Shown here in pieces: positions 1,131 to 60,282 of a stretch of DNA of 62,052 bases (positions within the stretch are counted from its first letter, which is position 1; each line of letters begins with the position of its first letter). A program made the position numbers and the translations under genes. Under the pieces are notes generated by a model that saw nothing but the letters and a program-made list of their open reading frames with translations, was not told where the DNA came from and made no database searches. The stretch comes from Clostridium sp. CAG:217 (lineage in GTDB: Bacteria; Bacillota_I; Bacilli_A; Erysipelotrichales; Erysipelotrichaceae), in assembly GCA_963623125.1 (NCBI GenBank), contig CAVFKJ010000046.1, positions 41,253 to 103,304 of the forward strand, given 5' to 3'.

Positions 1131-1161
1131 ATAAATATAATATTTAAGTAATCTTAAAATG

Positions 1162-1188
1162 GCTTAAGTTTAACACTTAGGCTTTTTT
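1162..1188 (+). terminator. Rho-independent terminator candidate
   Basis: Imperfect hairpin gcttaagt/acttaggc followed by TTTTTT. Confidence 0.5.
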
Positions 1189-1233
1189 ATTTTTAAGGTT
1201 ATAATAAGAAAAAATAAGAAGGGAGTATTCTAT

Positions 1234-4200
1234 ATGAATAAATCGCTATTAGCCAAAGTCTTACGATGTGTGGTATTAAGCTTGTTGTTTATAACGATCA
1301 TGCCTTGTAATATCTTAGCCCAGGGGGAAAAAGCTTATGCCTATAGTGAAAGTGATGGTAAGAAGACTTATTATTATTCCATTCCTGAGGCGATGAATGG
1401 CTCAAGAAAAGGCGCTATTCATATGACAAGAGATTGGGATGTTGGTGCCCAAATCAATATTGTAGAGGGTACTACTTCTATCATTTATATGGATGGTTTT
1501 ACTATTTATAAAGCTAATGATACTGAGTCTGATCCTTATCTAGGCGGTTTGTTTACTACTCATCCTAATTCTAAGTTATATCTATATGGTTCAACTACTT
1601 CAAAAGAATTTATGGATAGTAATGGTAATAAGGTTATAAGTGGTGGTTTGCTTACTGGTGGTTATGCCCATGATGGCGGTGCCATTTATATGAGAAATAA
1701 TTCCAAAATATATTTAACTAATGTGGCAATTAGTGGAAATAAGGGCGAATATACCGGTGGTGGTATTCATGTTGGTGAGGATTGTGAGATTTGGATGGAT
1801 AATGGCCACATTGATCATAATTATTCTGGAACTAATGGCGGTGGTATTTATTCTAGTTCGGATGGTACCCGTATTCATATGAGCAATAACTCATCAATTA
1901 GTTATAATGATTCTCATTCAATAAGTGGCGGTGGTGCTGGCGTTTGTTTTAAAAAAACTTGGTTTTCAATCGAAGGTGATGGTACTGCCAAAATTAGCAA
2001 TAATACCCATCATGATAGTGATGGTAGTGGCGGCGGCATCTATGTTTGCCAAAATAATTTTCATACTAATAATGGTTTAATTAGCGGTGTTATTATTGAT
2101 GGCAATAAGGCTTCTAGAGGCGCTGGTGTTTGTATTGGTACAAGTAATATTGTTTTAAAAGATGTAACAATTGCAAATAATACCGTAAAAGTTGATGGTG
2201 ATAACACTGGCGGTGGTGGCGTTTATGTTGCGACTGATGTTGATGTTAATCTTCAAGGTAAAGTAGAAATAATCAATAACAAGCGAACTGATGGCGCTGA
2301 TGATGATTTATTATTAGATGCGTTTATCACAAAAGCTTATATAAGACTTAAGGGTTTAAGTTCTGATTCTTTGATTGGCATTCGAACAAGCACAACAGGT
2401 GATAGATTAGTAGTAAAAAACATTTCAGATTCTAAGCTTTATTCTTGTTTCTTTTTAAATCAAGCTTCAAGTTACCATCTAGGGATTGAATCTAAAGATA
2501 ATGAACTATGGCAAAGAAATGGCACTACAAGTTATACGGTTAAGGTAAATGGAAAGCCGGTTGGTAAATACGCAGAAGGTACAAAGAATGTTACGATTGT
2601 TGATAATAATACCGATACATCTAGAGTATTTGTTTCTTGGAAAGAAAATTCTCTGGTAAAGCTAACTAATGATCAATTAAAGTCAAAAACTATTTCTTTT
2701 ACAATGCCGGCATTCAATGTAAATATGGAGGCCAATTATCTTCCTTCTGTTAAAGAACTTTCTTTAGATATTGATGGCGCTATTACTGATGGTCAAAAGT
2801 TTCCTGTTAAGGGATCTCTTAATTGGACTTTTAACAATATCGAAAATAGCGAGACAGTTACTTTAAATTGGTATAAGAAACAAGATGATTCATTTATAAG
2901 TTGTGCAGAAAATGAAGTCGCAACAAGTGGTGGGGAATACATATTTGAAGTATATGCCGATGCAAAACAAGATGGTGTACATGTATTATCTAGCTCCATT
3001 ACAAAAGATAACATAAAGATAAATTATGAGGGTATAACAGTTAGTGAATTTTCTTTAAGCGATGAAGGAACATTAAATTTTAAGAGTGATAAGATTCTTA
3101 TAGGCAAAGATAAGATTAAATATGTTGATCCAATAGTTGTTTTAGTAAGAGAAGGTGATAGTAAAAGGAATGTTATAAAGGCTATCACTCAAGTAAACAA
3201 TAATACTAGAAAACTTATCGCTACTTCTTATAATGGCTATGAATATGAAGTTGAACTAAATACGATTGAAATTGGAACATTTAATATAGATGGCGTGTTT
3301 GATAAAGAAGGTGAAGATGGAAAAGTGGCAGAAAATGCCAAGGCTTATTATCAAACAAGTGTTGGTGTCTCTACTACAAATAGTAAGATTGATTTAAATG
3401 GTAACACTAGTGCTGATGTGGTCATTATGGTGTTACCTAATAATGATGGAGATGCTGATACAAAGCCAAGTAAGCCTGAATTATTAGATAATGAATCTTG
3501 GACATTTGGTGACACTTTGTCAAAGAAAATAAAAATAGAATATAACGATTATCAAAAAGCATATTTACTTTATTATGATAAAGATGATGATGGTATCTTA
3601 AAATGGAACCTTAAGAATGTATTTGAACAACAAATTGTAGCTAGTAAAAATTCTTATAAAGAAGTTAAGGCTTTTGCTTGGGTTGTTGAAAACGGTAATA
3701 TGTCCGATGTTGCAAGTAAGCTTTATATAATTGACAATAGAATTAAATTCACATCATTTATTTCTAAGGTAGATGTGACAATTGATAATCTTGTTTATGG
3801 CCAAAGTTTGCCAACAGTTGTTAAAAATGTTGATGTAACTTTATCTGGAAATAAAGTTGCTTTATATAAGGATGTGCCAATACAATCATGGAATACAAAT
3901 GGTGAAGAGGTAGCTTTAAATAACAAGGTATATCAAGCCAAGATAGAAATAACCAATACGGGTGATTATGATATTGAGTATTTGTCTTCTTTACATGTAG
4001 AAGTTAATAATAATTCTAATATTTATGCTTATATAAAAAATGAAGATGGTAAAGCTATGTTATATATTATTTTCCCAGAACTAGAAGGTAGTACTGGTGA
4101 TTATGATGAAGATATACCGTTAAGTTATACTTTAAATGATATTGAAATAGATGATTATACTAGTGAGATATCTTATGAGGAAGCATGTAAATTGAACAAC

Positions 4201-4584
4201 GAAGTAAGTAAACTTGATTTGCCTAATGTAATACTAAAGTCAATTAATAATAATGATGATTCTAAAGAGTACTTTAGGATATATAAGGATGATATAGACT
4301 ATAGGATTATTACACCATTTGACTTAAACAATTATAATGCTCAAGAGATAGTAATAGAGGGCACTATTAACGAACCTTCATATTTAGAGTTTAATGGTTT
4401 AAGCAATAAGTTTACTTTAAGAATTAAAGTCAATTCAAAACAAGGTTATATACCTCAAGATGTTTTGGATAACTCAAGTAATAAGGCTATTACTTGTGAG
4501 GAATATATGAAATCAAAAGATTGGACTTGGTCTGAAAGTAAGAAGGCTTGTGTATATAAGGTAAGCAATACAAATAGTAAATAA
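1234..4584 (+). CDS. Large secreted surface protein with polymorphic-membrane-protein (PMP)-type beta-helix repeats
   Basis: N-terminal signal peptide (VVLSLLFITIMPCNILAQG). It has repeated GGAIY / GGGIH / GGGIY / GGGAGV / GGGVYV motifs spaced 20-30 aa apart. The long beta-rich C-terminal part looks Ig-like. No LPXTG is present. Confidence 0.7.
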   Translation: MNKSLLAKVLRCVVLSLLFITIMPCNILAQGEKAYAYSESDGKKTYYYSIPEAMNGSRKGAIHMTRDWDVGAQINIVEGTTSIIYMDGFTIYKANDTESDPYLGGLFTTHPNSKLYLYGSTTSKEFMDSNGNKVISGGLLTGGYAHDGGAIYMRNNSKIYLTNVAISGNKGEYTGGGIHVGEDCEIWMDNGHIDHNYSGTNGGGIYSSSDGTRIHMSNNSSISYNDSHSISGGGAGVCFKKTWFSIEGDGTAKISNNTHHDSDGSGGGIYVCQNNFHTNNGLISGVIIDGNKASRGAGVCIGTSNIVLKDVTIANNTVKVDGDNTGGGGVYVATDVDVNLQGKVEIINNKRTDGADDDLLLDAFITKAYIRLKGLSSDSLIGIRTSTTGDRLVVKNISDSKLYSCFFLNQASSYHLGIESKDNELWQRNGTTSYTVKVNGKPVGKYAEGTKNVTIVDNNTDTSRVFVSWKENSLVKLTNDQLKSKTISFTMPAFNVNMEANYLPSVKELSLDIDGAITDGQKFPVKGSLNWTFNNIENSETVTLNWYKKQDDSFISCAENEVATSGGEYIFEVYADAKQDGVHVLSSSITKDNIKINYEGITVSEFSLSDEGTLNFKSDKILIGKDKIKYVDPIVVLVREGDSKRNVIKAITQVNNNTRKLIATSYNGYEYEVELNTIEIGTFNIDGVFDKEGEDGKVAENAKAYYQTSVGVSTTNSKIDLNGNTSADVVIMVLPNNDGDADTKPSKPELLDNESWTFGDTLSKKIKIEYNDYQKAYLLYYDKDDDGILKWNLKNVFEQQIVASKNSYKEVKAFAWVVENGNMSDVASKLYIIDNRIKFTSFISKVDVTIDNLVYGQSLPTVVKNVDVTLSGNKVALYKDVPIQSWNTNGEEVALNNKVYQAKIEITNTGDYDIEYLSSLHVEVNNNSNIYAYIKNEDGKAMLYIIFPELEGSTGDYDEDIPLSYTLNDIEIDDYTSEISYEEACKLNNEVSKLDLPNVILKSINNNDDSKEYFRIYKDDIDYRIITPFDLNNYNAQEIVIEGTINEPSYLEFNGLSNKFTLRIKVNSKQGYIPQDVLDNSSNKAITCEEYMKSKDWTWSESKKACVYKVSNTNSK

Positions 4585-4589
4585 TCAAC

Positions 4590-4619
4590 AAGGTTTGGGT
4601 GTATGCTCAAGCCTTTTTT
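4590..4619 (+). terminator. Rho-independent terminator
   Basis: Stem aaggtttggg/ctcaagcctt (with G-U pairs) followed by a T-run. Confidence 0.6.
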
Positions 4620-4620
4620 A

Positions 4621-4720
4621 TAAAACATGTAATTTTAGACTTAAAAAACATCATAAAACTTGTAATATTTGCTTTAAAAAATAGCTTAAAACTTGTAATG
4701 AAAAAACTGTGATTGTAAAA
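4621..4720. repeat. Degenerate 33-bp tandem repeat, about 3 units
   Basis: TAAAAC(A/T)TGTAAT occurs at 4621, 4654 and 4687 (exact 33-bp spacing). Each copy is followed by a TTAAAAAA-like A-run. Confidence 0.7.
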
Positions 4721-4760
4721 TACGCCTTAAATAAAGGGCATTTCGTTAATGTTTGCTACA

Positions 4761-4824
4761 ACTAGACAAGACTAGATAAGTTTTGTCTAGTCACTAGACA
4801 AAATATTGTCGAGTAACTAGACAA
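4761..4824. repeat. ACTAGACAA word array: two direct copies plus two 9-1-9 palindromes
   Basis: actagacaa at 4761 and actagataa at 4771. Perfect palindrome ttgtctagt-c-actagacaa at 4783-4801. Near-palindrome ttgtcgagt-a-actagacaa at 4806-4824. Confidence 0.75.
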
Positions 4825-4858
4825 ATATGCGCGCAGGATATTGCTTTTGCATTTTTAA

Positions 4859-5854
4859 TCAAAGAGTTTCAAACATATCTAATGCATAAGAGTGAATATC
4901 ACTTGGCTTTACCATGTTGTATTTTTCTTTTATTGCTTTAAAATATGCTCCAATAGATTCGTTTGAAATAATCTTTTCAGATGGAGATTCTAACGGTAAA
5001 TCACTTCTGGCCTCAAGCCAAGGTGTTTCGCTATGCGTGAATTTTTCAAGTACTTTTCCACTGTAACAGCAAAAATTATCTATAACGCTATCAAAGATTG
5101 CTTTTTCTGCTGTGCTTAAGCACGAATCATCAAAGCTTGTATTCTTGGCAATAGGATCAAAATGATAATCACGATATTTAAAATAGACTTCTCGATAAAC
5201 AGGGCCATGTGTCCATGCTTCGCATTCTTCTTTAAAAAGGAAAGTATCACAAAAGGCAAAGTAAAACCCTTGGATATAATATAAAGCCTTTTGTAGTGCT
5301 AAAGGTGTGACATCTTCACATTTATTTAAAAGATATTTGATTGCAATATCGATTTTTGAAGATGAGGTTGTAGATTCATTTATTAATGCATCTACTGCTT
5401 TACGGCTTTTTTTATACGCATTCAATGACTTTAAATTGCCTTTTCTAGATTCTAGTAATTTTGCATAATAATGTGGGTCTTCATATATTTTGGCAAGAAT
5501 TTCTGAATATTGTTTTGTAGGAATATCACCTTCACAATATCTAGAAAAAGTAAGTTCTCCCCATCCCAATAAAAGTGAAAGCGGTCTTTTACCAATTGCA
5601 TATTTTTTAGGGATTGCCAAAATTGTTTCTAATGAAAGAATACCGTTTTTTTCGCGATATGTATCATATAAAGCTTTTAGATTAAAGTCGTTGATTTCTC
5701 TAACATAAACTTTCGAATTGCACTTAGTACATCTAGCAATCTTTCCAATATAACTATACTTTGTGCCCTTAATGGTTCCCTCCATCGATTCTTTATTTAC
5801 TTCATATTCTTCATCAAGACGACAATTTTCACAAAAAATCATTTTTTTATTCAT
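4859..5854 (-). CDS. Antitoxin candidate: MqsA-like zinc ribbon + XRE-type HTH fused to a DUF4065 (SocA/Panacea) domain
   Basis: CENC...CTKC zinc ribbon at the N-terminus. HTH-like segment LSLLLGWGELTFSRYCEGDIPTKQYSEIL. DUF4065-like segment LALQKALYYIQGFYFAF...WTHGPVYREVY. Its start overlaps the upstream ORF by 8 nt. Confidence 0.65.
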   Translation of the reverse strand: MNKKMIFCENCRLDEEYEVNKESMEGTIKGTKYSYIGKIARCTKCNSKVYVREINDFNLKALYDTYREKNGILSLETILAIPKKYAIGKRPLSLLLGWGELTFSRYCEGDIPTKQYSEILAKIYEDPHYYAKLLESRKGNLKSLNAYKKSRKAVDALINESTTSSSKIDIAIKYLLNKCEDVTPLALQKALYYIQGFYFAFCDTFLFKEECEAWTHGPVYREVYFKYRDYHFDPIAKNTSFDDSCLSTAEKAIFDSVIDNFCCYSGKVLEKFTHSETPWLEARSDLPLESPSEKIISNESIGAYFKAIKEKYNMVKPSDIHSYALDMFETL

Positions 5855-6287: not shown

Positions 6288-6343
6288 TAGTCCCTCTTCA
6301 ATGATTATGATACATTAATTGCCTAATTGTGTCTAGATAAAGT

Positions 6344-6357
6344 GTATCAATTGATAC
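6344..6357. promoter_or_regulatory. Palindromic operator candidate in the promoter region of the toxin-antitoxin operon
   Basis: Perfect 14-bp palindrome GTATCAATTGATAC about 60 bp upstream of the toxin start. An extra TGATACA half-site lies at 6307-6313. Confidence 0.4.
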
Positions 6358-6440
6358 ATATTTTAAATTTGCCAACCGAAACACTTTATGAACAAAAGTC
6401 ATTTATTGAGGTTACAATAGAAATAACTAAGAGGTATGAT

Positions 6441-7724
6441 ATGTCAAAGTATGTTTTAACTAATTGTTTTGTTTTAGATGGTACAAAGGACATGAAGGCT
6501 AATAAAGGTAGCGTTTATGTTGAAAATGATAAGATCGTTAAAGTAAGTGATGATGATAAGCTAATTGAAGGTTATGAAGTGATTGATTTAAAGGGTAAAT
6601 ATTTAATGCCTGGTTTAATCAATATGCATGTTCATTTGGCTGGCAATGGTAAGCCCCAAAAGAAACAAAGAGATAATGAGAAGCTAGTTAAGCAAGTTTT
6701 CGCTACAGCTGCTGGACGTTATGTGGCTAGAAAGCTTGTAGAAGATTATGCCAAGATTGAGCTTATGTCTGGAGTTACAACCATTAGAACAGTAGGGGGC
6801 CTAAAAGATTTAGATTCTAAGACAAGAGATAAGATTAATGCTGGTAAGATGGTTGGGCCTAGAATCTTGTGTTCTAATACCGCAATTTCTGTAAAGGGTG
6901 GTCATATGGCGGGTAGTGTTGCCAAGGCTTGCGATAGTATTGATGAAGCTTTAGCTTTTATTGACGAGCTTAATAAAGAAGGTGTTGATTTAATTAAGCT
7001 GATGATTACTGGCGGTGTAATGGATGCTAAGGAAAAGGGTGTTCCTGGCCAATTAAAGATGAAACCGGAGATGGTTAAGGCGTGTTGTAAGAGGGCACAC
7101 GAGCTTGGTTTTATTGTTTCAGCCCATGTAGAAAGCCCTGAGGGTGTTAAGGTAGCCTTGGAAAATGGTGTTGATTCTATTGAGCATGGTGCTGTTTTAG
7201 ATGATGAATGTGTCAAATTATTCAAGGAAAAGAAGGCTTTCTTGATTTGTACAGTTTCACCTGGCATTCCATATGCTTTATTTGATAGAGAAGTAGCTCA
7301 TACAAGTGAAGTTGAAAAGTATAATGGCGAAATTGTCTTAAATGGTTTTATCGAAGGCGCTAAGAAGGCTTTGGAAAATAATATTCCGGTAGGGCTTGGC
7401 AATGATGTAGGCTGTCCTTGGATTAGCCAATATGACTTCTATAGAGAGCTTGTTTATTTCCATAAATATGTTGGCGTAAGTAACGCTTTTGCCTTATATA
7501 CCGCAACGCTTAATAACGCTAGATTAGCGGGCGTAGAAAAAGAAACCGGTTCAATTGAAGCTAATAAGTGTGCAGATATGATTGTTACTAGTAAAAATCC
7601 TTTAGATAATCTTAATAATTTGCGTAATGTGGATATGGTTATTAAATCGGGTAAGATTATCTATAATCCAAAGGTTAAGCGTAAGGCTTATGTTGATTCT
7701 TATTTGGATGAATATTGTAAATAA
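6441..7724 (+). CDS. Metal-dependent amidohydrolase family protein
   Basis: LMPGLINMHVHL (HxH metal motif), SAHV and SIEHG motifs. AAGAGG RBS lies 7 nt before the ATG at 6441. The track start at 6327 would run through the divergent promoter. Confidence 0.75.
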   Translation: MSKYVLTNCFVLDGTKDMKANKGSVYVENDKIVKVSDDDKLIEGYEVIDLKGKYLMPGLINMHVHLAGNGKPQKKQRDNEKLVKQVFATAAGRYVARKLVEDYAKIELMSGVTTIRTVGGLKDLDSKTRDKINAGKMVGPRILCSNTAISVKGGHMAGSVAKACDSIDEALAFIDELNKEGVDLIKLMITGGVMDAKEKGVPGQLKMKPEMVKACCKRAHELGFIVSAHVESPEGVKVALENGVDSIEHGAVLDDECVKLFKEKKAFLICTVSPGIPYALFDREVAHTSEVEKYNGEIVLNGFIEGAKKALENNIPVGLGNDVGCPWISQYDFYRELVYFHKYVGVSNAFALYTATLNNARLAGVEKETGSIEANKCADMIVTSKNPLDNLNNLRNVDMVIKSGKIIYNPKVKRKAYVDSYLDEYCK

Positions 7725-7754
7725 TATAGAGATTTTATCGTTATAATAAATATC

Positions 7755-8609
7755 GTGAAAAAAGAAGTTCGTGATTATTTATTTATTATCTTTTGGTCAT
7801 TTATTTTCGCATTAAGTTGTAATCTTTTTATTGTCCCCTTTGGACTTTATAATGGTGGCATTATTGGGGTTGCCCAACTTATTAGAACTTTGATAGTTAA
7901 TGTATTTAAAGTAAATGTTAACTTTGATTTAACGGGTATTGCGAATCTATTAATTAATATTCCGCTTTTAATTATTTCTTTAAAAGTATTAAATAAGAAC
8001 TTTGTCTATAAGACTATTGTTTCCGTAATTTTTCAAACAATAGCCTTTTCTATTGTCTTTAAGGCTTCACCTATTAATGATGAACTAGTAAGCATTATCG
8101 TTGGTGGAGCAATATCAGGTTATGCTATCTCAAGAATTTTGGTTTATAAGGCCTCGGGTGGCGGCAATGATATCTTGGGATTGTTTGTTACTTTAAAACA
8201 TCCAACAATTTCTGTTGGTAGATATTGTTTTATCTTTAACTGTATTTTATATGGACTTTGTGCTATATTGTTTAATTTTGAGACAGCTGTTTATTCAATC
8301 ATTCAAGCTTTTGTTTATTCAACCGTAATTGATAAGGGACATTTAGAGAATATTGATGTAGCTTTGATGATTTTTACTAAGAATGAAGAAGTAAAGAAGA
8401 TGATTATGAAAGATAATCGTCGTGGTGTTACTACTTGGTCAGGTAAGGGCGCTTATACTAATAAGGATACTGAAGTACTAGTTTCGGTTGTATCAAAGTA
8501 TGAGGTTTATGAATTAAAAAGAAAGATTAGAAATTTGGATAAGGATGCGTTTATCATTATTACAAATGTTGAGGATGTATCTGGCGGTTATGATAAGAGG
8601 TTGGTATGA
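7755..8609 (+). CDS. YitT-family membrane protein with C-terminal DUF2179
   Basis: Multi-TM N-terminal part (FGLYNGGIIGVAQL) plus a DUF2179-like tail (VALMIFTKNEE...AFIIITNVEDVSGGY). GTG start. Confidence 0.75.
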   Translation: MKKEVRDYLFIIFWSFIFALSCNLFIVPFGLYNGGIIGVAQLIRTLIVNVFKVNVNFDLTGIANLLINIPLLIISLKVLNKNFVYKTIVSVIFQTIAFSIVFKASPINDELVSIIVGGAISGYAISRILVYKASGGGNDILGLFVTLKHPTISVGRYCFIFNCILYGLCAILFNFETAVYSIIQAFVYSTVIDKGHLENIDVALMIFTKNEEVKKMIMKDNRRGVTTWSGKGAYTNKDTEVLVSVVSKYEVYELKRKIRNLDKDAFIIITNVEDVSGGYDKRLV

Positions 8610-9304
8610 GTAAGGAAGAATTTTTAAGGGCATTAAGTGATAATGGTTTGACTTTAGATGATAAGCAAATTGAGCAATTGGATGATTATGCAGCCTTTTT
8701 GAAGGAATATAATCAAAAGATTAATCTAACAGGCATTGATGAATATGAGGATGTTTTGGATAAACATTTCTATGATTCCTTATTATTGAGTTTTAATTTT
8801 AAGCTTGAAGGTTGTTTTGTGGATGTTGGAACCGGTGCGGGTTTTCCTGGTGTAGTCTTAAAGATATGTTATCCAAATTTAAGAGTTATTTTACTAGAGC
8901 CCTTAAAGAAAAGATGTGTATTTTTAAATGAACTAATTGAAAAGCTTGCTTTAAAAGATATTGAAGTAGTTAATACTAGGGGTGAAGAATATACCGCCTT
9001 ACATCGAGAAGAATTTGATTATGTTAGCGCTAGAGCTGTTAGTAATATGAATATGCTTATTGAAGTATGTGGGGGCTTAGTTAAAAAAGATGGTTATTTC
9101 ATTGCCCTAAGAGGTTTAAATGGCCAAGAAGAGTTAAAGAGTGCTAGTAGAGCGATTAAGGAAATGGGCTTTGTTAAGGAAAGTGAGAAAGAATGCTTCT
9201 TGTTTGAGGGGTCAAAAAGATATATCGCTTATTTAAGAAAGAAGAGCCTTACTCCTAAAAAGTATCCAAGAAATTATAGTATAATTGTGAAGAAACCGTT
9301 ATGA
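8606..9304 (+). CDS. rsmG: 16S rRNA (guanine527-N7)-methyltransferase RsmG
   Basis: INLTGI...HFYDSL...DVGTGAGFPGVVLKI SAM-binding motifs. Conserved position upstream of noc/soj/spo0J. Confidence 0.9.
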   Translation: MSKEEFLRALSDNGLTLDDKQIEQLDDYAAFLKEYNQKINLTGIDEYEDVLDKHFYDSLLLSFNFKLEGCFVDVGTGAGFPGVVLKICYPNLRVILLEPLKKRCVFLNELIEKLALKDIEVVNTRGEEYTALHREEFDYVSARAVSNMNMLIEVCGGLVKKDGYFIALRGLNGQEELKSASRAIKEMGFVKESEKECFLFEGSKRYIAYLRKKSLTPKKYPRNYSIIVKKPL

Positions 9305-10050
9305 GTGAAGTAGTAAATATTGATGTAAATAAGATTGTGCCTAATAAGAGTCAACCTAGACTTGATTTTTATGATGATTCAATAAAATCTTTGGCCGAAA
9401 GTATTAAGGAAAATGGCCTATTACAGCCTGTTTCTGTAAGAAAAATGGGTGATGAGTATGAGCTTATTGCTGGAGAGAGACGTTTTAGGGCTTGTAAGTA
9501 TTTAGGATTTAAAGAAGTTAAGGCTATTGTTTATGATATGTCAGATAAAGAGAGTGCTGCCTTATCTTTAATTGAGAATATTCAAAGAGAAGATTTAAAT
9601 GCGATTGAGACAGCCATGGCTATGCAAAGAATCATGGATGATGAGGGTATTACCCAAAACGAGTTAGCTAAAAGACTTGGTTATAAACAAAGTACAGTGG
9701 CTAATAAGATTAGACTTTTAAAGCTTCCTGATTATGTAAAGAACGCTGTTAGTATTGGTACGATTACTGAAAGACATGCGCGTGCTTTGCTTAAGGTGCC
9801 AAGTGAGATGCTTGAGGAAGTTTTCCTTACAATTACTAATCGTAATTATACGGTTAGTAAAACAGAAGAATATATTGATTCTTTACTTAATAAGAATAAA
9901 CATACTAAGGGTGTTTCTTATGGTAGTCAGATTGCGGTTAATTCTTTAAAACAAACTTATGATATGGTAAGAAATGCGGGTATTGATGCGGATTTTCAGG
10001 TTAGTGAATATTCGGATATTACTAAAATAGTAATTAAAATAAAGAAATAG
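9301..10050 (+). CDS. noc: ParB-family protein, Noc-like by position
   Basis: ParB N-terminal box (LLQPVSVRK...ELIAGERRFRAC) and HTH (TQNELAKRLGYKQSTVANKIRLLKLP). It sits between rsmG and soj, as noc does in Bacillus. Confidence 0.6.
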   Translation: MSEVVNIDVNKIVPNKSQPRLDFYDDSIKSLAESIKENGLLQPVSVRKMGDEYELIAGERRFRACKYLGFKEVKAIVYDMSDKESAALSLIENIQREDLNAIETAMAMQRIMDDEGITQNELAKRLGYKQSTVANKIRLLKLPDYVKNAVSIGTITERHARALLKVPSEMLEEVFLTITNRNYTVSKTEEYIDSLLNKNKHTKGVSYGSQIAVNSLKQTYDMVRNAGIDADFQVSEYSDITKIVIKIKK

Positions 10051-10058
10051 GAGGAAGT

Positions 10059-10844
10059 ATGGCGAAAGTTATTGCGATTGCGAATCAAAAAGGTGGTGTT
10101 GGTAAGACTACCACTTCTATAAATTTGGCTGCTGGGTTAGCCTATCTTTCTAAGAAAGTATTATTGATTGACTTTGATCCTCAGGGCAACGCCACTCAGG
10201 GCATTGGTTATGAGGTTAGAGTTGATGATTTAACCGTATATGATGCTTTACTTGGGGATAATGATATTAAAGATTGTATTAAGAGCTTAAAGAAGCCTCC
10301 TTTAGATATTCTTCCAGCTAACATTACTTTGGCTGGTGCTGATTTGGAGATTGCGCAAATTGAGGAAAATCGTGAACAAATCCTTAAGAGTAAACTAGAT
10401 ACAATTAAAGATAATTATGATTTTGTCATTATTGATTGTCCTCCTAGTTTAGGTTTACTTAATACTAATGCCCTTACGGCAGCAGATTCAATTATTATTC
10501 CAGTACAGTGTGAATATTATGCTTTAGAGGGTGTTACGCAACTTTTACAAACTATTAGACTTGTTCAAAAGTTGTTTAATCCTAAGTTAAAGATTGAGGG
10601 TGTTCTTCTTACAATGTTTGATGCGCGTACTAATTTAAGTAGTGAAGTGTCTAGTGAAGTTAGAAAGCACTTTAAGGAAAAAACATATCGTACTAATATT
10701 CCAAGAAATATTAAGTTATCAGAGGCTCCAAGTGTTGGTAAATCGATTTTTGATTATGATATGTCTTGTGAGGGCGCTAGAGCTTATGTAGCTTTAACTA
10801 AGGAAGTTATTGAGACAAATAAAGAAGGTGAAAACAATGGCTAA
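10059..10844 (+). CDS. soj: Chromosome partitioning ATPase ParA/Soj
   Basis: Deviant Walker A NQKGGVGKTTT and the DCPPSLG motif. Confidence 0.9.
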   Translation: MAKVIAIANQKGGVGKTTTSINLAAGLAYLSKKVLLIDFDPQGNATQGIGYEVRVDDLTVYDALLGDNDIKDCIKSLKKPPLDILPANITLAGADLEIAQIEENREQILKSKLDTIKDNYDFVIIDCPPSLGLLNTNALTAADSIIIPVQCEYYALEGVTQLLQTIRLVQKLFNPKLKIEGVLLTMFDARTNLSSEVSSEVRKHFKEKTYRTNIPRNIKLSEAPSVGKSIFDYDMSCEGARAYVALTKEVIETNKEGENNG

Positions 10845-28343: not shown

Positions 28344-30319
28344 TGAATAGGGACGAGAGAGAAAAACTTTTAGATGAAGTTTTAAATAGACGTAGAAATG
28401 TTAATGTGCAGGATTCTTTAAAGATTATTAATGAGACTGAGGCACAATTAAATAAGCTAATGAATGAGAATAAGAAGGGTATTGATGACCTTCTTAAAGA
28501 TAATAATACTTATAGTGATGATTATTTGGCTGGTGTTAAAAGCCAAATGGAAAAGGATTTTGATACTAAGATAGAAGTACCTGATACTGTTGTAGTAGGT
28601 AAGGGCTCTAAAGAAGTTTTTGATAAGATTGAAGCTGATTTAAAGGGTAAGATAATCGGTCAAGATGATGCTTGTGAAAAACTTACAATGGCTTTTAGAA
28701 GACCTTATGTAGTAGGTAGTAATCCTAAGCTTATTAAAAATTCTATTGTTGTCTATGGTTCTAATGGTACTGGACGCCATCTTTTAGTTTCTAGTATTGG
28801 GGAACTTTTACACAAGTATGGTTTAACTACGTCGTGTGAAGTAGCTACTTTGGATATGAAAAGATATCAATCTAGTAGCCAAGAGATATTGTTTTTACAA
28901 GACTTGTATGTTGCCTTAAGTGGAAGAAATCCAATTATTTTAGTAGAAAACTTTAAAGAGAGTTCACCTGTTTTTAATATGATGTTAAGTGAGCTTGTAT
29001 TAAATGGTAAGGTTGTTTTAAATCAAAGATACACTTTTGTGAACAATCAACTTCAAGAAGCTACTAGCAAGCTTAGTAAGGATGTTATTGACCACTTAGA
29101 TGGTAATGGCAAGATTTTGGTTTTCCTTACAAGCGATAGTCCAAGTAAGTTAATGGATGTCTTTGGTAAGTCTTTTGTAGATAAGGTTGAGGATAAAATT
29201 GAAACCGTTAAATTATCTGATGAGGCTGTTGGTAAGATTATTGATAATTTGCTTAATGATTTAGAAAAAAGAAGTGAAACCCAATTCGAACTTGATTTAG
29301 TTATTGATAAGAGTATTAAAGATTATTTGTTAAGCAAGTACGAGCCAAATGATGGAGTTGATTCTTTAACTCCTATAATTGATCGTATTTATACTAATTT
29401 AGTTAATATTACTTTAGCTAATAATGATATTGATGTTTTAACTATTAAATATGATGATACTATCAAGGCCATCTTTAATGAAAAGACTTTTGATTTAGAG
29501 ATTAGTGATGATTCTTCTAAAGAGCGAGAAGAGATTCAAAAGGAACTTGATGAAATAGTAGGACTTAAGAGTGTTAAGGATTACTTATTGTCTTTAGAAA
29601 ATCATATTAAGATTACACAAATTAGAAAACAAAAGGGTCTTAAGACTTCAGAAGTAAGCAAGCATATGATTTTTACGGGTAATCCTGGTACTGGTAAGAC
29701 AACTATTGCCCGTATTGTTTCGCGTATGATGAAGGCTTGTGGCATTTTAAAACAAGGCCAATTAGTTGAAGTAACACGTGCTGATTTAGTTGGTAAATAT
29801 GTTGGCCATACGGCTCCTTTAACCATGGATGTGATTAATAGTGCTTTGGGTGGTGTCTTATTTATTGATGAGGCTTATTCATTATATAGAGGTAAAGATG
29901 ATTCTTTTGGACTAGAAGCAATTGATACTTTAGTAAAAGGTATGGAAGATCATCGTGATGATTTAATCGTTATATTAGCTGGCTATTCTAAGGAAATGGA
30001 AGAGTTTTTGACGGCTAATAGTGGTTTAAAGAGCAGATTTGCCAATATTATTCATTTTGATGATTATAGTGGTGAGGAAATGACTTTAATTTCTAAAAGC
30101 ATCGCCAAGTCTAAGGGTTATGTAATAAGTGATGAGGCTATTAAGCCTTTAACTGATTACTATACAATTATTCAGGGCAAGGATGATCCAAATAGCGGCA
30201 ATGGTCGACTTGCTAGAAACAAGGTTGAGGAAGCCATCTTAAAACAAGCTAATAGATTATTGGATAATCCTGATGATGATATCAGTGAACTTAAGCTTGA
30301 GGATTTTAATTTAGCGTAG
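28343..30319 (+). CDS. Two-module AAA+ protein: degenerate ClpB-D2-like module plus SpoVK/CbbX-type AAA+ module
   Basis: N-terminal half: GQDDACEKLTMAFRR...VVYGSNGTGRHLL...IILVENF, where the Walker A Lys and Walker B Asp-Glu are not conserved. C-terminal half: canonical FTGNPGTGKTTIARIV, LFIDEAYSL and VILAGY. Confidence 0.7.
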   Translation: MNRDEREKLLDEVLNRRRNVNVQDSLKIINETEAQLNKLMNENKKGIDDLLKDNNTYSDDYLAGVKSQMEKDFDTKIEVPDTVVVGKGSKEVFDKIEADLKGKIIGQDDACEKLTMAFRRPYVVGSNPKLIKNSIVVYGSNGTGRHLLVSSIGELLHKYGLTTSCEVATLDMKRYQSSSQEILFLQDLYVALSGRNPIILVENFKESSPVFNMMLSELVLNGKVVLNQRYTFVNNQLQEATSKLSKDVIDHLDGNGKILVFLTSDSPSKLMDVFGKSFVDKVEDKIETVKLSDEAVGKIIDNLLNDLEKRSETQFELDLVIDKSIKDYLLSKYEPNDGVDSLTPIIDRIYTNLVNITLANNDIDVLTIKYDDTIKAIFNEKTFDLEISDDSSKEREEIQKELDEIVGLKSVKDYLLSLENHIKITQIRKQKGLKTSEVSKHMIFTGNPGTGKTTIARIVSRMMKACGILKQGQLVEVTRADLVGKYVGHTAPLTMDVINSALGGVLFIDEAYSLYRGKDDSFGLEAIDTLVKGMEDHRDDLIVILAGYSKEMEEFLTANSGLKSRFANIIHFDDYSGEEMTLISKSIAKSKGYVISDEAIKPLTDYYTIIQGKDDPNSGNGRLARNKVEEAILKQANRLLDNPDDDISELKLEDFNLA

Positions 30320-30339
30320 CGATCAAATGATCGCTTTTT
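30318..30339 (+). terminator. Rho-independent terminator
   Basis: agcgatc-aaat-gatcgct hairpin followed by TTTTT. Confidence 0.7.
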
Positions 30340-30344
30340 AAATG

Positions 30345-30389
30345 GTAGACTTTGAAAGTAGACTTTAAGTAGACTTTATAGTATACTTT
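30345..30389 (+). repeat. Four GTAGACTTT-type iterons immediately upstream of the AlbA_2 gene
   Basis: gtagacttt at 30345, 30358 and 30369, and gtatacttt at 30381, giving spacings of 13/11/12 bp. The first 34 bp are repeated exactly at 31714-31747. Confidence 0.85.
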
Positions 30390-30412
30390 AAGTGGTTAAA
30401 GTAGGTGATAAT

Positions 30413-31717
30413 ATGTTAAATCTTGGAATGGAAAATGAAAATCAAGAGTTTAAAGAGGGTTTGGGTCAACTAGATAAGGGGCTTAAGTCGATTACGGCAA
30501 TGCTTAATAAAAGTGGCAGTGGAACAGTTTATTTTGGTGTAAATGATGATGGTGATATCTGTGGACTTTCTATTGGCAAGAATACTTTGATGGACATTCG
30601 CAATAGAATCAGAGATAAGATTGAGCCTAGAATTTATGCTGATATCGAAGAATTAAGAGATGATGATAAAAAGTATATAAAGGTTTCGGCAACCGGTTTT
30701 GATGCACCTTATTCTTTTGATGGAAGATATTATATTCGCAATGTTTCTTCGGATGAACAAGCCTCTAACGATGTTTTAAGAAAAATGTTGGCTTCTTCTG
30801 ATAGCGATATTATTCGTCAAAAAACTTCGCCTAAGCAGAATTTATCCTTTAAAGCCTTTTTTGCGATATTAGCTGGAAGTGGCATCCATCCTAAGGCTAA
30901 TAAGGAATTTTATAATAACTATGGTTTGTTAAATAGAGATGGTAAATTTAATATAAATGCCTATTTATTGTCTGATGAAAATGAGGTTTCCATTAAAGTT
31001 GTTACTTTTGATGGTTTAGATAAAACCGTCATGTCAAGAAGAACGGAATATGGTGGAAAGTGTTTATTGGTTTCAATATCGGAGGTTATGAGTTATTTTG
31101 AATCAATTAATACAACTAATGTTGATTTAAATAGCAGTTTAAGAAAAGAAGAATATTTATTTGATTTTTCTAGTTTTAGAGAAGCGTGGATTAATGCTTG
31201 TTTACATAATGATTGGAATAACGCTATTCCGCCTTCAATACACTTATTTGATGATCGTATTGAGATTATTTCTTATGGTGGTTTACCATTTGCTTTGTCA
31301 AAAGAAGGTTTCTTTAATGGCACAAGTATGCCTATTAATAAAAGCCTTCTTACTATCTTTATTGCAGCGCATTTCGCTGAACAAAGTGGACATGGTGTTC
31401 CAACGATTGTTGAAAAATATGGTCGTGATGTCTTTTCTTTTGATGATGGAATGTTAAAGGTTACTTTGCCTTTAGCCTTTGATAGACCGGAAATTATTGC
31501 GCGTAAGAAGCTTGCTTTGCAAAAAAAGGGACTAAATGAAAATCAAAAGAAAGTTTATGATGCCTTAGCAAATGATGGCAAGGCTTCACTTGAGGATGTT
31601 TCAAAAATCGTTGGTCTAAGTCTTGGTGGTGTCAAAAAGATTTGTGCTAAACTTCAAGATTATCATTTACTTGAAAGAAAAGGCTCTAAGCGTGATGGCA
31701 TTTGGATTGTAATGTAG
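30413..31717 (+). CDS. AlbA_2 (Schlafen-like) + HATPase_c_4 + C-terminal winged-helix protein
   Basis: ENQEFKEG...GTVYFGVNDDGDICG matches AlbA_2. FREAWINACLHNDW...DDRIEIISYGGLP matches HATPase_c_4. NQKKVYDALANDGKASLEDVSKIVGLSLGGVKKICAKL is wHTH-like. The ATG at 30413 follows AGGTGA; the track start is an upstream GTG. Confidence 0.7.
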   Translation: MLNLGMENENQEFKEGLGQLDKGLKSITAMLNKSGSGTVYFGVNDDGDICGLSIGKNTLMDIRNRIRDKIEPRIYADIEELRDDDKKYIKVSATGFDAPYSFDGRYYIRNVSSDEQASNDVLRKMLASSDSDIIRQKTSPKQNLSFKAFFAILAGSGIHPKANKEFYNNYGLLNRDGKFNINAYLLSDENEVSIKVVTFDGLDKTVMSRRTEYGGKCLLVSISEVMSYFESINTTNVDLNSSLRKEEYLFDFSSFREAWINACLHNDWNNAIPPSIHLFDDRIEIISYGGLPFALSKEGFFNGTSMPINKSLLTIFIAAHFAEQSGHGVPTIVEKYGRDVFSFDDGMLKVTLPLAFDRPEIIARKKLALQKKGLNENQKKVYDALANDGKASLEDVSKIVGLSLGGVKKICAKLQDYHLLERKGSKRDGIWIVM

Positions 31718-31747
31718 ACTTTGAAAGTAGACTTTAAGTAGACTTTA
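31714..31747 (+). repeat. Exact 34-bp copy of the upstream iteron block, overlapping the stop codon
   Basis: gtagactttgaaagtagactttaagtagacttta is identical to 30345-30378. Confidence 0.9.
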
Positions 31748-31750
31748 AAA

Positions 31751-31777
31751 AAAGATGAGTTTTTTATGCTCATCTTT
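31751..31777. terminator. Bidirectional terminator between convergent genes
   Basis: aaagatgag/ctcatcttt stem with A/T-rich flanks. Confidence 0.6.
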
Positions 31778-32705
31778 ATTGTTTTTTAACCGCTGTTGCA
31801 TTATAGCTTAAAGGTAAGAAAATAAATCCTTGATTTGATAGTTCATCTATCATTTCCCCAAGGCAAGCGGCTGTATTAGCGCTATAGTCATGCATAAGGA
31901 CAATTAGCGTATTGAACTTACTGGAATAGTCGATGACGTTATGCAAGAATTCATCGGGTTCTAATACTGAATCACCATCACCAGTAGTAAGCGTCCAATC
32001 AACATAGCCATAGTGCATATCAACTAGTTCTTGTACAATCTTACTTTTATCAAGTCCTGAATAAGTAGCTTGTGGCGAGCCACCAGGGAAGCGCATTACT
32101 TCAGTAGTATAGCCTAGTAGGTTTTGAATAAATTCTCTATTTTCTTTTATATCATTAATAAAGTTTTCTTCGCTTGAATAAGTATAACCAGATATGGCAT
32201 GACTGGCTGTATGATTTCCTAGTGTATGACAACTATACATTTCTCTAAAGTATAAATCATCTACTCCTTCTTTTTCTAATAGGAAGAAGGTTGCTAAGAC
32301 ATCTTTTTCATCCAATATATCTAAGAAAGTTGGTGTGGTCTTGCGATATGGTCCATCATCAAAAGTTAGATAACATACTTTAAAGTCGGCTTCACCACTT
32401 TTAGCTAAGCTTTCAGCTTCAACGGCATATTTAAAGTATTCTTCTTTTACAGCGTTAATTGATTCATCAATGTTGTTGATGGAATCTAGCTTTTCTTGTA
32501 AAGTAGCTACTTCACTATTTTTGTTTTCAATTTGATTATCTAAGGAAGCGATTCTATCTTGCAAAGCTTGATTGTTATTTTTTAAAGTATTTGTATCTTT
32601 ATAGAACTTATAGGCAACAAGGGTAACAATAATGCATAATACTGCAAGAATACAAATACCTAATAGCCAAGTAGTGCTTTTAGCTTGTCTTTGTGTCTTA
32701 TCCAT
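31776..32705 (-). CDS. Membrane-anchored polysaccharide deacetylase (NodB homology domain) with coiled-coil linker
   Basis: N-terminal TM, then a coiled coil (NNNQALQDRIASLDNQIENKN...), then NodB motifs LTFDDGP and GNHTASH. AAGGAG RBS. Confidence 0.85.
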   Translation of the reverse strand: MDKTQRQAKSTTWLLGICILAVLCIIVTLVAYKFYKDTNTLKNNNQALQDRIASLDNQIENKNSEVATLQEKLDSINNIDESINAVKEEYFKYAVEAESLAKSGEADFKVCYLTFDDGPYRKTTPTFLDILDEKDVLATFFLLEKEGVDDLYFREMYSCHTLGNHTASHAISGYTYSSEENFINDIKENREFIQNLLGYTTEVMRFPGGSPQATYSGLDKSKIVQELVDMHYGYVDWTLTTGDGDSVLEPDEFLHNVIDYSSKFNTLIVLMHDYSANTAACLGEMIDELSNQGFIFLPLSYNATAVKKQ

Positions 32706-58704: not shown

Positions 58705-60144
58705 TTATTGCAAGATGATGGAACTGTGATTGGTCTTATATACCTTTGTTTTACCATCTGATTTTATTAATAAATCTTGTTTTACTAAGTTATTAATAAT
58801 GGTATTTCTTAAGTAACTTGAATCACTAATATTTAAATTAGCAGCAATCTCTTTGATGCTTCTTGCCTGCGCGTAACAATACGATAGAATTTGTTTATCA
58901 TATTTGCTTTCCTTTTCGATTGGAGGATAAATTAAATTTGTTGTTTCATTACTTTCTATGCCTTCAAGATAGGTTAAATCGGGAAGGACTAGAGTAAAAT
59001 GGTCGCTTGTTGAAAAGATGTAAGGTCTATGTTTAAGATCACAATCTTTATAGTCTTCAAGTATTTTATCAAAGTCAGTACCAGCTGCTTCCATAACGTT
59101 ACATAAAACAAGTACTCCACATATAATGTTGTTTCTTCTTTTAGAAATAATATGCGATAAGTCATATGTTTTAGCTATTGTTTCGCCATTATAAAAGCTT
59201 CCTGGTGAGGATATTTCTAGTCGATCTTTAAAAATATCGAATTGAATCTGGCTACCATCGATAAAGTAGTCCCTATGGGCAAAAGTGTTTACTACGCCCT
59301 CAAATAATGCACGTTTAGGGTAAGAGTCAATATTTATTCTATAATCATCTTTTTTGATGATAGAGTGGTTCATTCTGCTTGTAATAAAGTCCATCACATA
59401 GGAAATTGAATCAGTGATATTACCTTTATATTTATTAATACTGACAATTCTTTGACTACCTTTATTAAAGCCGGAATATAGTGAACACTGAACAAGTGTT
59501 TTATCACCATCATAATCATCTTTAAATAATAGAGCACCATTACTCAAATTATTATCATTATCATAAAAGCCTAAAGAGCTTAGAACTTTATTTGATAATT
59601 GTTTATTGTCATTGTGAAGAGAATAGAAGGCGAATAATTTTTTAAAATCATTTTGACTATATTTAATATCGCTATAAAGAGAATCATATTGTACTTTCTT
59701 ACTAGAAATGGACATATTTATTATTTCTTCATATGTGGCACCATTAGTGAAACCATCTCTTCGCATGTATATTGATGGAATGTCATTGTATTTTAGGATA
59801 ATGGGTTTAATAGCTGATTCATAAACATTTACTTTGATAATAAACAATTCTTTTCCTCTAATCTCATATCTTAAAAACTCTATGTTTATATTTGGTCTTG
59901 GCGTTAAATGCTCATTTATTTGACTATTGAAGTAATTTCTTTCTTTGTCTGCTTGCGTTTTATCAAAACCGACTAGTTTATTTGTCTTGTCTTCTACACC
60001 AATATAAAAGACGCCACCTTTATTATTAGAAAAACCTGCGATTGTTTTTAACCAAGATATTGGATCTTGTGCGTTTAATTTGCTTTTGCATTCAAAAAAT
60101 TCATTTTCAGTATAATGAGTGTTATCTATTTCTTCTAAAAACAT
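58705..60144 (-). CDS. AlbA_2 (Schlafen-like) + HATPase_c_4 + C-terminal winged-helix protein, paralog of 30413-31717
   Basis: ENEFFECKS...GGVFYIGVEDKTNKLVG matches AlbA_2. LFEGVVNTFAHRDY...KDRLEISSPGSF matches HATPase_c_4. The C-terminal SIKEIAANLNISDSSYLRNTIINNLVKQ is a wHTH. The ATG at 60144 follows a GGGAGA RBS; the track start is an upstream GTG. Confidence 0.7.
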   Translation of the reverse strand: MFLEEIDNTHYTENEFFECKSKLNAQDPISWLKTIAGFSNNKGGVFYIGVEDKTNKLVGFDKTQADKERNYFNSQINEHLTPRPNINIEFLRYEIRGKELFIIKVNVYESAIKPIILKYNDIPSIYMRRDGFTNGATYEEIINMSISSKKVQYDSLYSDIKYSQNDFKKLFAFYSLHNDNKQLSNKVLSSLGFYDNDNNLSNGALLFKDDYDGDKTLVQCSLYSGFNKGSQRIVSINKYKGNITDSISYVMDFITSRMNHSIIKKDDYRINIDSYPKRALFEGVVNTFAHRDYFIDGSQIQFDIFKDRLEISSPGSFYNGETIAKTYDLSHIISKRRNNIICGVLVLCNVMEAAGTDFDKILEDYKDCDLKHRPYIFSTSDHFTLVLPDLTYLEGIESNETTNLIYPPIEKESKYDKQILSYCYAQARSIKEIAANLNISDSSYLRNTIINNLVKQDLLIKSDGKTKVYKTNHSSIILQ

Positions 60145-60157
60145 AATATTTTCTCCC

Positions 60158-60241
60158 ACTTCAATTTTACTTCAAAGCTACTTCAATATAACTTCAATAA
60201 ATACTTCAATGCTACTTCAATGAATTATTGAAGTACTTCAA
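60158..60241 (-). repeat. Seven ACTTCAA (gene-sense TTGAAGT) iterons plus one inverted copy, directly upstream of the AlbA_2 paralog
   Basis: ACTTCAA starts at 60158, 60169, 60180, 60191, 60203, 60214 and 60235, giving spacings of 11/11/11/12/11/21 bp. Inverted repeat tacttcaat-gaatt-attgaagta at 60213-60235. Confidence 0.85.
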
Positions 60242-60282
60242 AATAGGGATGATATAATTTAAAAAATAATTTAGGAGCATTT

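Follow-up and report, generated by a model that had tools for sequence, protein, structure and literature searches.

Why should a single Schlafen-type gene lie between two identical copies of a short direct repeat, one of which runs across its own stop codon? We addressed this question for a stretch of 62,052 nucleotides of Clostridium sp. CAG:217 (Erysipelotrichaceae; GenBank assembly GCA_963623125.1, contig CAVFKJ010000046.1, positions 41,253 to 103,304 of the forward strand), hereafter called the window. The gene encodes P0001, a protein with a Schlafen (AlbA_2), a GHKL ATPase and a winged-helix domain, and it is bracketed by arrays of short repeated words (iterons). We hold with moderate confidence that the locus is a self-repressed, stand-alone Schlafen-type module with operator iterons on both sides of the gene, in which recombination between the two arrays would remove the gene and leave a solo array. 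Its parts are as follows (window positions).

30318–30340, + strand: terminator of the upstream gene and left boundary of the module (terminator-like hairpin at 30318–30335 plus a T-run).
30345–30389, + strand: upstream iteron array, three units GTAGACTTT plus one unit GTATACTTT; probable operator carrying the promoter.
30359–30387, + strand: predicted sigma-70-type promoter from a consensus scan (−35 TAGACT, 17-bp spacer, −10 TATACT).
30404–30408, + strand: ribosome-binding site GGTGA, found by sequence inspection.
30413–31717, + strand: Schlafen (AlbA_2)-GHKL ATPase-winged-helix gene encoding P0001 (434 amino acids), from its open reading frame (ORF) and domain matches.
31714–31747, + strand: downstream iteron array, identical to the first 34 bp of the upstream one.
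31751–31787, no strand assigned: shared terminator and right boundary of the module (hairpin at 31751–31777, A-run before and T-run after).

The window contains the 34-mer GTAGACTTTGAAAGTAGACTTTAAGTAGACTTTA exactly twice, at 30345–30378 and 31714–31747, both times on the + strand. In 100 shuffles zero matches were obtained at ≤ 3 mismatches, so none is expected by chance. It consists of three 9-bp units GTAGACTTT, the starts of which lie 13 and 11 bp apart. The upstream units start at 30345, 30358 and 30369; the degenerate fourth unit GTATACTTT follows 12 bp on, at 30381, and is succeeded by AAGTGG, the ribosome-binding site and the ATG at 30413. ORF calling begins the gene at a GTG at 30392, and an alignment of orthologs favours the ATG. 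The downstream copy opens with the G that ends the last sense codon (ATG, 31712–31714) and spans the TAG stop codon (31715–31717). All units are direct tandem repeats without inverted symmetry. The original prediction, made from the letters of the window, had described a perfect 34-bp repeat of phased iterons spaced 11–13 bp apart around an AlbA_2 gene; the repeat is exact at both positions and the measured spacings are 13, 11 and 12 bp. The prediction had also called for a genome-wide count of the word. Across the 1.25-Mb assembly we counted 19 copies of GTAGACTTT where ~16 would be expected; the two arrays account for six of them, and no further cluster was found. The word clusters at this gene alone and is no dispersed repeat in this genome.

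The terminators proposed for both sides were found as well. An AAA+ gene (SpoVK/CbbX-like) to the left of the module ends at 30319, within the left hairpin. To the right, a convergent polysaccharide deacetylase gene (31776–32705, − strand) uses the same terminator as the module; this hairpin is flanked by an A-run and a T-run and can therefore work in both directions.

The source genome is a metagenome-assembled genome (MAG) of 104 contigs that is 67% complete, and a duplicated 34-mer might be an artefact of its assembly. We consider this extremely improbable. A short Logan contig from SRR13434675, the one match to an exact look-up of the deacetylase, independently carries the right-hand junction and ends within the array, as is expected at k = 31 for a 34-bp repeat, and the same architecture is present in dozens of independent assemblies, including those of cultured isolates.

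Pfam profile matches recovered all three domains of the predicted AlbA_2/HATPase_c_4/winged-helix plan. Residues 7–117 of P0001 match SLFN_AlbA_2 (PF04326; E = 2.3e-19, 70.5 bits against a cut-off of 25.3), residues 274–336 match HATPase_c_4 (GHKL ATPase, PF13749; E = 5.8e-11) and the C-terminus matches HTH_24/TrmB at 369–425 (HTH_24 at 374–416, E = 1e-5). The N-terminal stretch E7-NENQ-E12-F-K14 (ENENQEFK) fits E-x4-(E/D)-x-K, which a recent survey gives as the catalytic motif of prokaryotic Schlafen (pSlfn) nucleases (PMC13056530). E12 does not vary among 43 homologs, in which E7 and K14 are each at least 90% conserved. In the AlphaFold2 model (mean predicted local distance difference test score 80.6), residues 376–433 form three helices and a beta wing. 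Foldseek matched the N-terminal domain to SLFN5/11/12/13/14 and the SAMD9 tRNase domain, and the C-terminal domain to MarR-type winged-helix regulators. No transposase or Rep domain was present among the Pfam matches of P0001, and no known recombinase fold among its structure matches.

By domain content, P0001 is a member of the pSlfn HisKinase-HTH (helix-turn-helix) class and carries the 'Schlatpase' supradomain with an HTH tail. According to the survey, pSlfn proteins are anti-phage tRNases and the HisKinase-HTH class makes up 19.2% of 5,930 pSlfn proteins (PMC13056530). The Schlatpase is SLFN plus GHKL PF13749, and its C-terminal tails are HTH in > 90% (bioRxiv 10.64898/2026.05.29.728809). 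The defence context attributed to AlbA_2 proteins in the original prediction thus has published support at the level of the protein family (PMC13056530), and P0001 itself may have tRNase or anti-phage activity. P0001 is a singleton in databases, its nearest relative being 79% identical; exact sequence look-ups for P0001 and for the protein of its AAA+ neighbour returned no record.

Does the protein have anything to do with the iterons? Orthologs were retrieved by protein similarity alone, and an array was counted when at least two phased units were present. An upstream array was found in the last 130 bp before the start codon in 26/26 orthologs and a downstream array in the first 110 bp after the stop codon in 16/32, and a control stretch inside the gene gave phased units in 0/35. 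The word follows the recognition helix. Proteins with the helix S(L/I)xGVKK(I/A) keep GTAGACTTT down to 48% identity, whereas the GVQKI lineage pairs with GTATATTTT, the GVTKRTIER subfamily with ATGTCGGT, the NLGQRTVER subfamily with TTGACGGAA, the SVNKG subfamily with GTATAGAATAA and the SYVRKI subfamily with AAGTGACAAATAA. The G(L/V)xxT(A/S)(I/V) subfamily has TTATC(C/A)CCCAC, in two direct copies and one inverted copy. One locus (L058) even contains two cassettes of different subfamilies in a row, each with its own word before it. A second family member lies in the window itself.

58705–60243, − strand: paralog P0002 with its upstream array; same three-domain plan, ~24% identical to P0001.

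The gene of P0002 (58705–60144, − strand) is preceded by 7–8 units of TTGAAGTA with 11–12-bp spacing (~60153–60243) that reach its ribosome-binding site; no downstream array was found at P0002. Two paralogs of the same genome thus use different words, which disfavours a shared host factor. The iterons are probably the sites of the protein's own winged helix, as was originally proposed: binding is presumed from the upstream arrays of all 26 orthologs and from the shift of the word with the recognition helix.

Alternatively, the units might travel with the gene without being bound by its product, either as reiterated promoter or UP-like elements or as binding sites for a host factor encoded elsewhere. 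Each unit does resemble a −35 (TAGACT) or −10 (TATACT) hexamer, and similar arrays with TATAAT precede unrelated genes (L057/L069, L071/L107, G008). We find this very doubtful, as the word changes in step with the recognition helix between subfamilies, differs between paralogs of the same genome and is not enriched elsewhere in this genome. Downstream arrays, moreover, lie where no promoter is needed, as in the window, L021 and L053, where the next gene is convergent.

The predicted promoter lies inside the four phased units, with the −35 match (30359–30364) in unit 2 and the −10 match (30382–30387) in unit 4, so that both overlap the putative operator. On a consensus reading, the −35 and −10 elements are as far apart as two iteron periods (23 bp), and ortholog promoters have a like layout in which the −10 is often TG-extended (TGGTATACT).

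What, then, is the second array? Orthologs 62–79% identical to P0001 amount to at least 1,234 protein clusters at E ≤ 1e-50. Their distribution is patchy and covers five genera of the window's family in the sampled genomes; cultured carriers are Faecalicoccus, Amedibacillus, Lachnoclostridium and Eubacterium ruminantium. Bin titles name further phyla, and such labels are unreliable as cross-phylum evidence because one genome of the window's own genus (G022; L008 = L186, G022:C192) is titled Tannerellaceae. The order array-gene-array also occurs in the cultured isolates Faecalicoccus acidiformans DSM 26963 and F. pleomorphus DSM 20574. Many orthologs end in AAG TAG ACTTT, with the stop codon inside the first downstream unit; since this placement is common to many of them, the arrangement in the window is ancestral and no local accident. 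The stop-codon start is kept in proteins that are only 48–79% identical and in many contexts, the duplicated segment regularly stops at the last iteron without remnants of a ribosome-binding site or gene, and a downstream array is also present in a distant subfamily with a different word (L033). Judged by this distribution, the module has long and widely included a downstream array, which is no footprint of a recent event here.

The two arrays of a locus also resemble each other. Among 21 non-redundant loci, the longest identical run between upstream and downstream arrays averaged 22.4 bp within a locus versus 15.2 bp between loci (permutation p = 1e-4), with 34 bp in the window, 48 bp in L177, 39 bp in L197 and 38 bp in L074. 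Inter-unit spacers vary by locus (GAAA, AA, GA, AAA, ATG) and are usually matched between the upstream and downstream array of the same locus, and a variant unit (GTGTACTTT) is common to both arrays in L023 and L197. As far as aligned loci can tell, this demonstrates that the arrays of a locus evolve in concert, linked by recombination.

The downstream array could also be a neutral leftover of tandem duplication or of cassettes in a row, sometimes homogenised by gene conversion and now being lost, with the upstream array alone functional. It is missing in the other 16/32 orthologs and shrunk to one unit or AAGTAGA in several loci, and one allele (L110) has deleted its copy and kept the gene; the array is therefore dispensable and could be neutral. 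Cassettes do stand in rows or fused to family remnants (L058, the P0007 locus described below), and the copy number of units is unstable, from 3 to ~11. We place this reading on the unlikely side, with a real chance of being right: the conserved stop-codon start, the regular end at the last iteron, the array of the distant subfamily and the significant similarity within loci all speak against it.

Two further ideas about this array were set aside. As an operator of the next gene it fares poorly, since its presence is uncorrelated with the orientation of that gene: the next gene is co-directional in 13 and convergent in 3 loci with a downstream array, and in 9 and 3 loci without one; next-gene distances are mostly 100–750 bp. 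An extension of the repeat into the last codons, as a circularly permuted unit, was not significant (identity p = 0.29, run length p = 0.04, some units misplaced). L055, L228 and the window (AATG) look suggestive of such an extension; the idea was dropped. The locus had no match to a known RNA family.

Unit number and orientation vary between loci. Upstream arrays of 8 to ~11 tandem units occur in L088, L093 and L108, versus 3–4 in most loci, and the four-unit block of G021 (L013) is internally duplicated. In G008 and G384, one inverted unit stands to the left of each array.

If recombination links the two arrays, alleles should exist in which it has removed the gene, and the original prediction had suggested looking for an empty site with one repeat copy. 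Such a site was found in a human-gut species. Three filled contigs (L095, L072, L091) read left flank-array-gene-array-right flank and three empty contigs (L051, L112, L062) read left flank-one array-right flank, with flanks that are 97–99% identical. Positions 1–1110 of L051 correspond to 3907–5016 of L095 (97.6%) and positions 1061–5318 to 6329–10586 (98.3%); the 50 bp shared by both flank alignments correspond to the array, and the filled allele is 1362 bp longer. The solo array combines both sides: its first three units are upstream-like, and its last unit and flank are downstream-like. A third allele (L110, L138) has kept the gene and lost the downstream array through a 155-bp deletion, and its 3' third is divergent: relative to L095 it is 99–100% identical to ~+700 of the gene, 61–69% over the last 500 bp (end of the GHKL domain and HTH) and then 99.8%. 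Swapping of cassettes at the arrays was considered for this species and rejected, as L110 is a mosaic with its break inside the gene. The locus was not found in 400 Erysipelotrichaceae genomes; the species belongs to another family.

A looser contrast exists in the window's genus, where G384 has an array and gene after the left-flank gene at the point where G008 has a four-unit solo array; the region is rearranged further downstream too. Solo arrays are present in several genomes. When metagenomes were scanned for three phased units, 118 stretches were obtained, 80 of which were listed. In 41/80 listed stretches a family homolog directly adjoins the array; ~25 of the 39 gene-less matches were discarded as unrelated microsatellites, the remainder being true solo arrays. 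The predicted gain or loss of the cassette through its repeats is therefore supported at homologous cassettes, as filled and solo alleles exist at the gut locus. No relative in the window's genus has the AAA+ gene next to the deacetylase gene, and no orthologous empty site was found; the gene downstream of the AAA+ gene varies in these relatives (GNAT-like, mnmE and others).

Taken together, we propose that positions 30345–31747 form a compact, self-contained, horizontally spread single-gene module. Its phased 9-bp iterons, in an 11–13-bp register (about one DNA turn), would be the cognate sites of the winged helix. An oligomer on the upstream array would repress its own, probably toxic, gene, because that array contains the predicted promoter. 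The downstream array would be a second set of sites, held in step with the first by recombination; if it has a function, it may boost repression through a DNA loop or titrate the protein locally. A crossover between the arrays would delete the gene and leave one solo array, so that the module would act as a gain/loss cassette: recombination between its arrays would remove a defence-type gene and perhaps bring it back.

Several points weigh against this proposal, in addition to the dispensability of the downstream array. Both the binding of the iterons by the protein and the autorepression are what we infer from sequence. The promoter is a consensus match, and promoter-like sites are no commoner in the region than in shuffles. 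Within the close orthogroup, the co-variation of helix and word amounts to one lineage. In L060 (51% identical), the downstream units are inverted (AAAGTCTAC, three to four copies in the first 60 bp after the stop codon); recombination would therefore invert the segment there and not delete it, and direct orientation is not universal. Filled and solo alleles come from homologous cassettes and none from that of the window genome. No clean case of a never-occupied, array-free site was found, the relatives of L177 and L183 sharing diverged flanks alone, so gain by re-insertion into a solo array is conjecture. As to defence, the one published phage screen of pSlfns had two protecting genes, which are of other fusion types (DUF262 and Ig-like), and the HisKinase-HTH class had not been picked for that screen (PMC13056530).

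Cassettes that are 96–99% identical sit in different contexts, their shared homology beginning ~20 bp to the left of the upstream array and ending 0 to ~150 bp to the right of the downstream array. No partner recurs among the 147 neighbouring proteins, which match 161 Pfam families. Many are housekeeping proteins; the set also includes three further family members, four Fic proteins, and two each of large serine recombinases and DDE transposases. Fic is the commonest domain, tied with ABC_tran (4/147 proteins each). In the window, positions 1–26000 are origin-proximal core chromosome (two ParB-type genes, gidB, ftsH, tmk, a holB-like gene and ychF), and an accessory Sec locus is also present. 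The cassette therefore lies among housekeeping genes and in no obvious island. Neither PF00589 (tyrosine recombinase) nor PF00239 (serine recombinase) had a match in the 67%-complete assembly.

These contexts raise the possibility that the arrays are attachment sites, at which a circle is excised and integrated site-specifically by the encoded protein or a host recombinase, regulation being secondary. It would fit that near-identical cassettes (98% at the nucleotide level) occupy unrelated contexts with homology ending near the arrays, that no recurrent recombinase neighbour is present among the 147 neighbouring proteins, that several genomes contain solo arrays, that the duplicated segment is the array itself and not a variable stretch of the gene, and that the module sits between housekeeping genes without extra DNA. 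In four independent contexts (L178/L233–L242, L187, L192 and L198), homology is also lost straight after AAGTAGA, inside the would-be first downstream unit, which may be chance or a preferred breakpoint. We nevertheless judge attachment sites unlikely. The junctions inspected showed neither a circle junction nor a target-site duplication or conserved terminal motif, right-hand breakpoints are nested and imprecise, half of the orthologs have a single array, the protein lacks a known recombinase fold and repeats of 34–50 bp are long enough for loss by ordinary recombination or slippage.

Faecalicoccus gives a further argument against attachment sites. There (L174 3679–5589, F. acidiformans DSM 26963; L175, L180), the unit lies within a separate, integrase-less 1.77-kb element at tRNA-Asn(GTT), bounded by a 78-nucleotide direct repeat (95% identical) that comprises the 3' end of tRNA-Asn plus a terminator. 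The gene can therefore also ride conventional elements. In F. pleomorphus (L180), a second copy of the bounding repeat lies upstream, as if elements had accreted in tandem.

A bolder version is a minimal selfish element, whose protein would assemble on the arrays and itself promote the excision of the 1.4-kb unit and its re-integration at arrays or array-like cores. A milder variant has the arrays tether the tRNase as an inactive, DNA-bound filament that senses disturbance of the host chromosome. We regard the two, taken jointly, as quite improbable. A selfish element, if real, would be a recombination system without a known recombinase fold, and it would explain a lone defence-type gene between housekeeping genes in unrelated gut and rumen bacteria. 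Plasmids and phages were rejected as vehicles: homologs in plasmid records are ≤ 33% identical, and the sole phage homolog, in Mycoplasma phage phiMFV1, is 40% identical. In 2.9 million viral contigs, the three-unit pattern occurred once, as an unrelated coding repeat.

Our preferred reading, the self-repressed module lost by recombination between its arrays, has partial counterparts in known systems. In P1/F-type plasmids (incC-repA-incA), the gene of a winged-helix initiator is flanked on both sides by direct arrays to which the initiator binds; the one upstream overlaps the promoter and serves autorepression, and the one downstream titrates the protein or loops ('handcuffing'). The layout of a winged-helix protein gene with direct arrays on both sides is shared. 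In contrast, P0001 has no Rep domain, its 9-bp words are spaced 11–13 bp apart versus iterons of ~19–22 bp, and the 1.4-kb unit is chromosomal, among parB, gidB, ftsH and tmk, with no origin features. In solo long terminal repeats, recombination between terminal direct repeats removes the body of the element and leaves one repeat, as in the solo arrays; here, however, there is no reverse transcriptase or integrase. An integron cassette is a single gene with an adjacent recombination site that occurs in many contexts, its attC being made of imperfect inverted repeats, whereas the module has plain direct tandem arrays, a promoter-like site of its own and no recombinase match in the assembly. Transposons and insertion sequences differ as well: the module lacks a transposase domain, has direct-repeat ends and is without a target duplication at inspected junctions.

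Among relatives by protein, TrlG of Photorhabdus (AlbA_2+HATPase_c_4) is the only member with these two domains for which a phenotype was found: its loss lifts growth restriction at 36 °C (bioRxiv 10.1101/2020.06.02.129163). By domain description, TrlG of Photorhabdus laumondii shares the two core domains and a patchy, strain-specific distribution, and the relief of growth restriction fits a potentially toxic protein under tight control. It differs in being part of a three-gene operon with the small regulator trlR, with no iterons or flanking repeats reported (bioRxiv 10.1101/2020.06.02.129163). Of the full-length fold matches, DIP2311 of Corynebacterium diphtheriae (PDB 3lmm) ranks first (Foldseek E = 7e-19), and it is also the sole sequence match in the PDB; it is a longer chain with ~15% identity and a structural-genomics entry of unknown function. 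The pSlfn HisKinase-HTH and Schlatpase proteins are alike in PF04326 with its motif, PF13749, the C-terminal HTH, the single gene, the patchy spread and defence-type neighbours at some loci (Fic, AbiEii), and they differ in that, by term searches for iterons and flanking repeats, neither paper describes these features, nor does either describe autoregulation (PMC13056530; bioRxiv 10.64898/2026.05.29.728809). A literature search joining 'Schlafen' and 'iteron' returned nothing relevant. Although the protein family is known, its iteron architecture, the stop-codon array and the turnover to solo arrays appear to be undescribed.

The anti-phage effector role of bacterial Schlafen-type nucleases was demonstrated only in 2025–2026, and the Schlafen-GHKL-HTH form is among their commonest architectures, without an assigned mechanism or regulation. 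The iterons would give its HTH a concrete, predictable DNA target, differing per subfamily, beside every gene of the family, and they suggest how a potentially toxic nuclease stays silent. The solo array points to a simple route of loss for a single defence-type gene that leaves a recognisable scar; such scars can be counted in genomes as a measure of gene turnover. Looping, titration or recombination may account for the conserved recurrence of an array at the stop codon.

Some further observations concern arrays and family members elsewhere. In several loci (L057, L069, L071, L107 and L014, the last at G008:C137 222–266), GTAGACTTT arrays, some with a terminal TATAAT, stand directly before unrelated genes, such as those of a small protein MKCTPINF..., of MESNKKIVYEEY... 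and of a membrane protein. L198 contains two arrays ~2.6 kb apart in one island. Arrays before unrelated genes could be captured promoters, members of a regulon or products of recombination. In the GTATATTTT lineage (L013/L020/L171–L173; window's genus, titled Solobacterium), a Fic-domain gene follows ~10–16 nucleotides downstream and there is no downstream array. At the locus of P0007 (77% identical to P0001; L225–L232, from Hadza and other human-gut samples), the downstream array is fused to the 3' remnant of a family member (144–152 amino acids, part of the GHKL domain plus the HTH); the island contains Fic, AbiEii and HTH_17 genes, and some contigs have a tyrosine integrase and a group II intron reverse transcriptase. 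Finally, the phiMFV1 homolog (L215; NC_005964.2 1527–2834) is full-length and annotated as 'DNA helicase', and three ATAAAGT(A/G) units with 12-bp spacing lie ~300 bp downstream of it.

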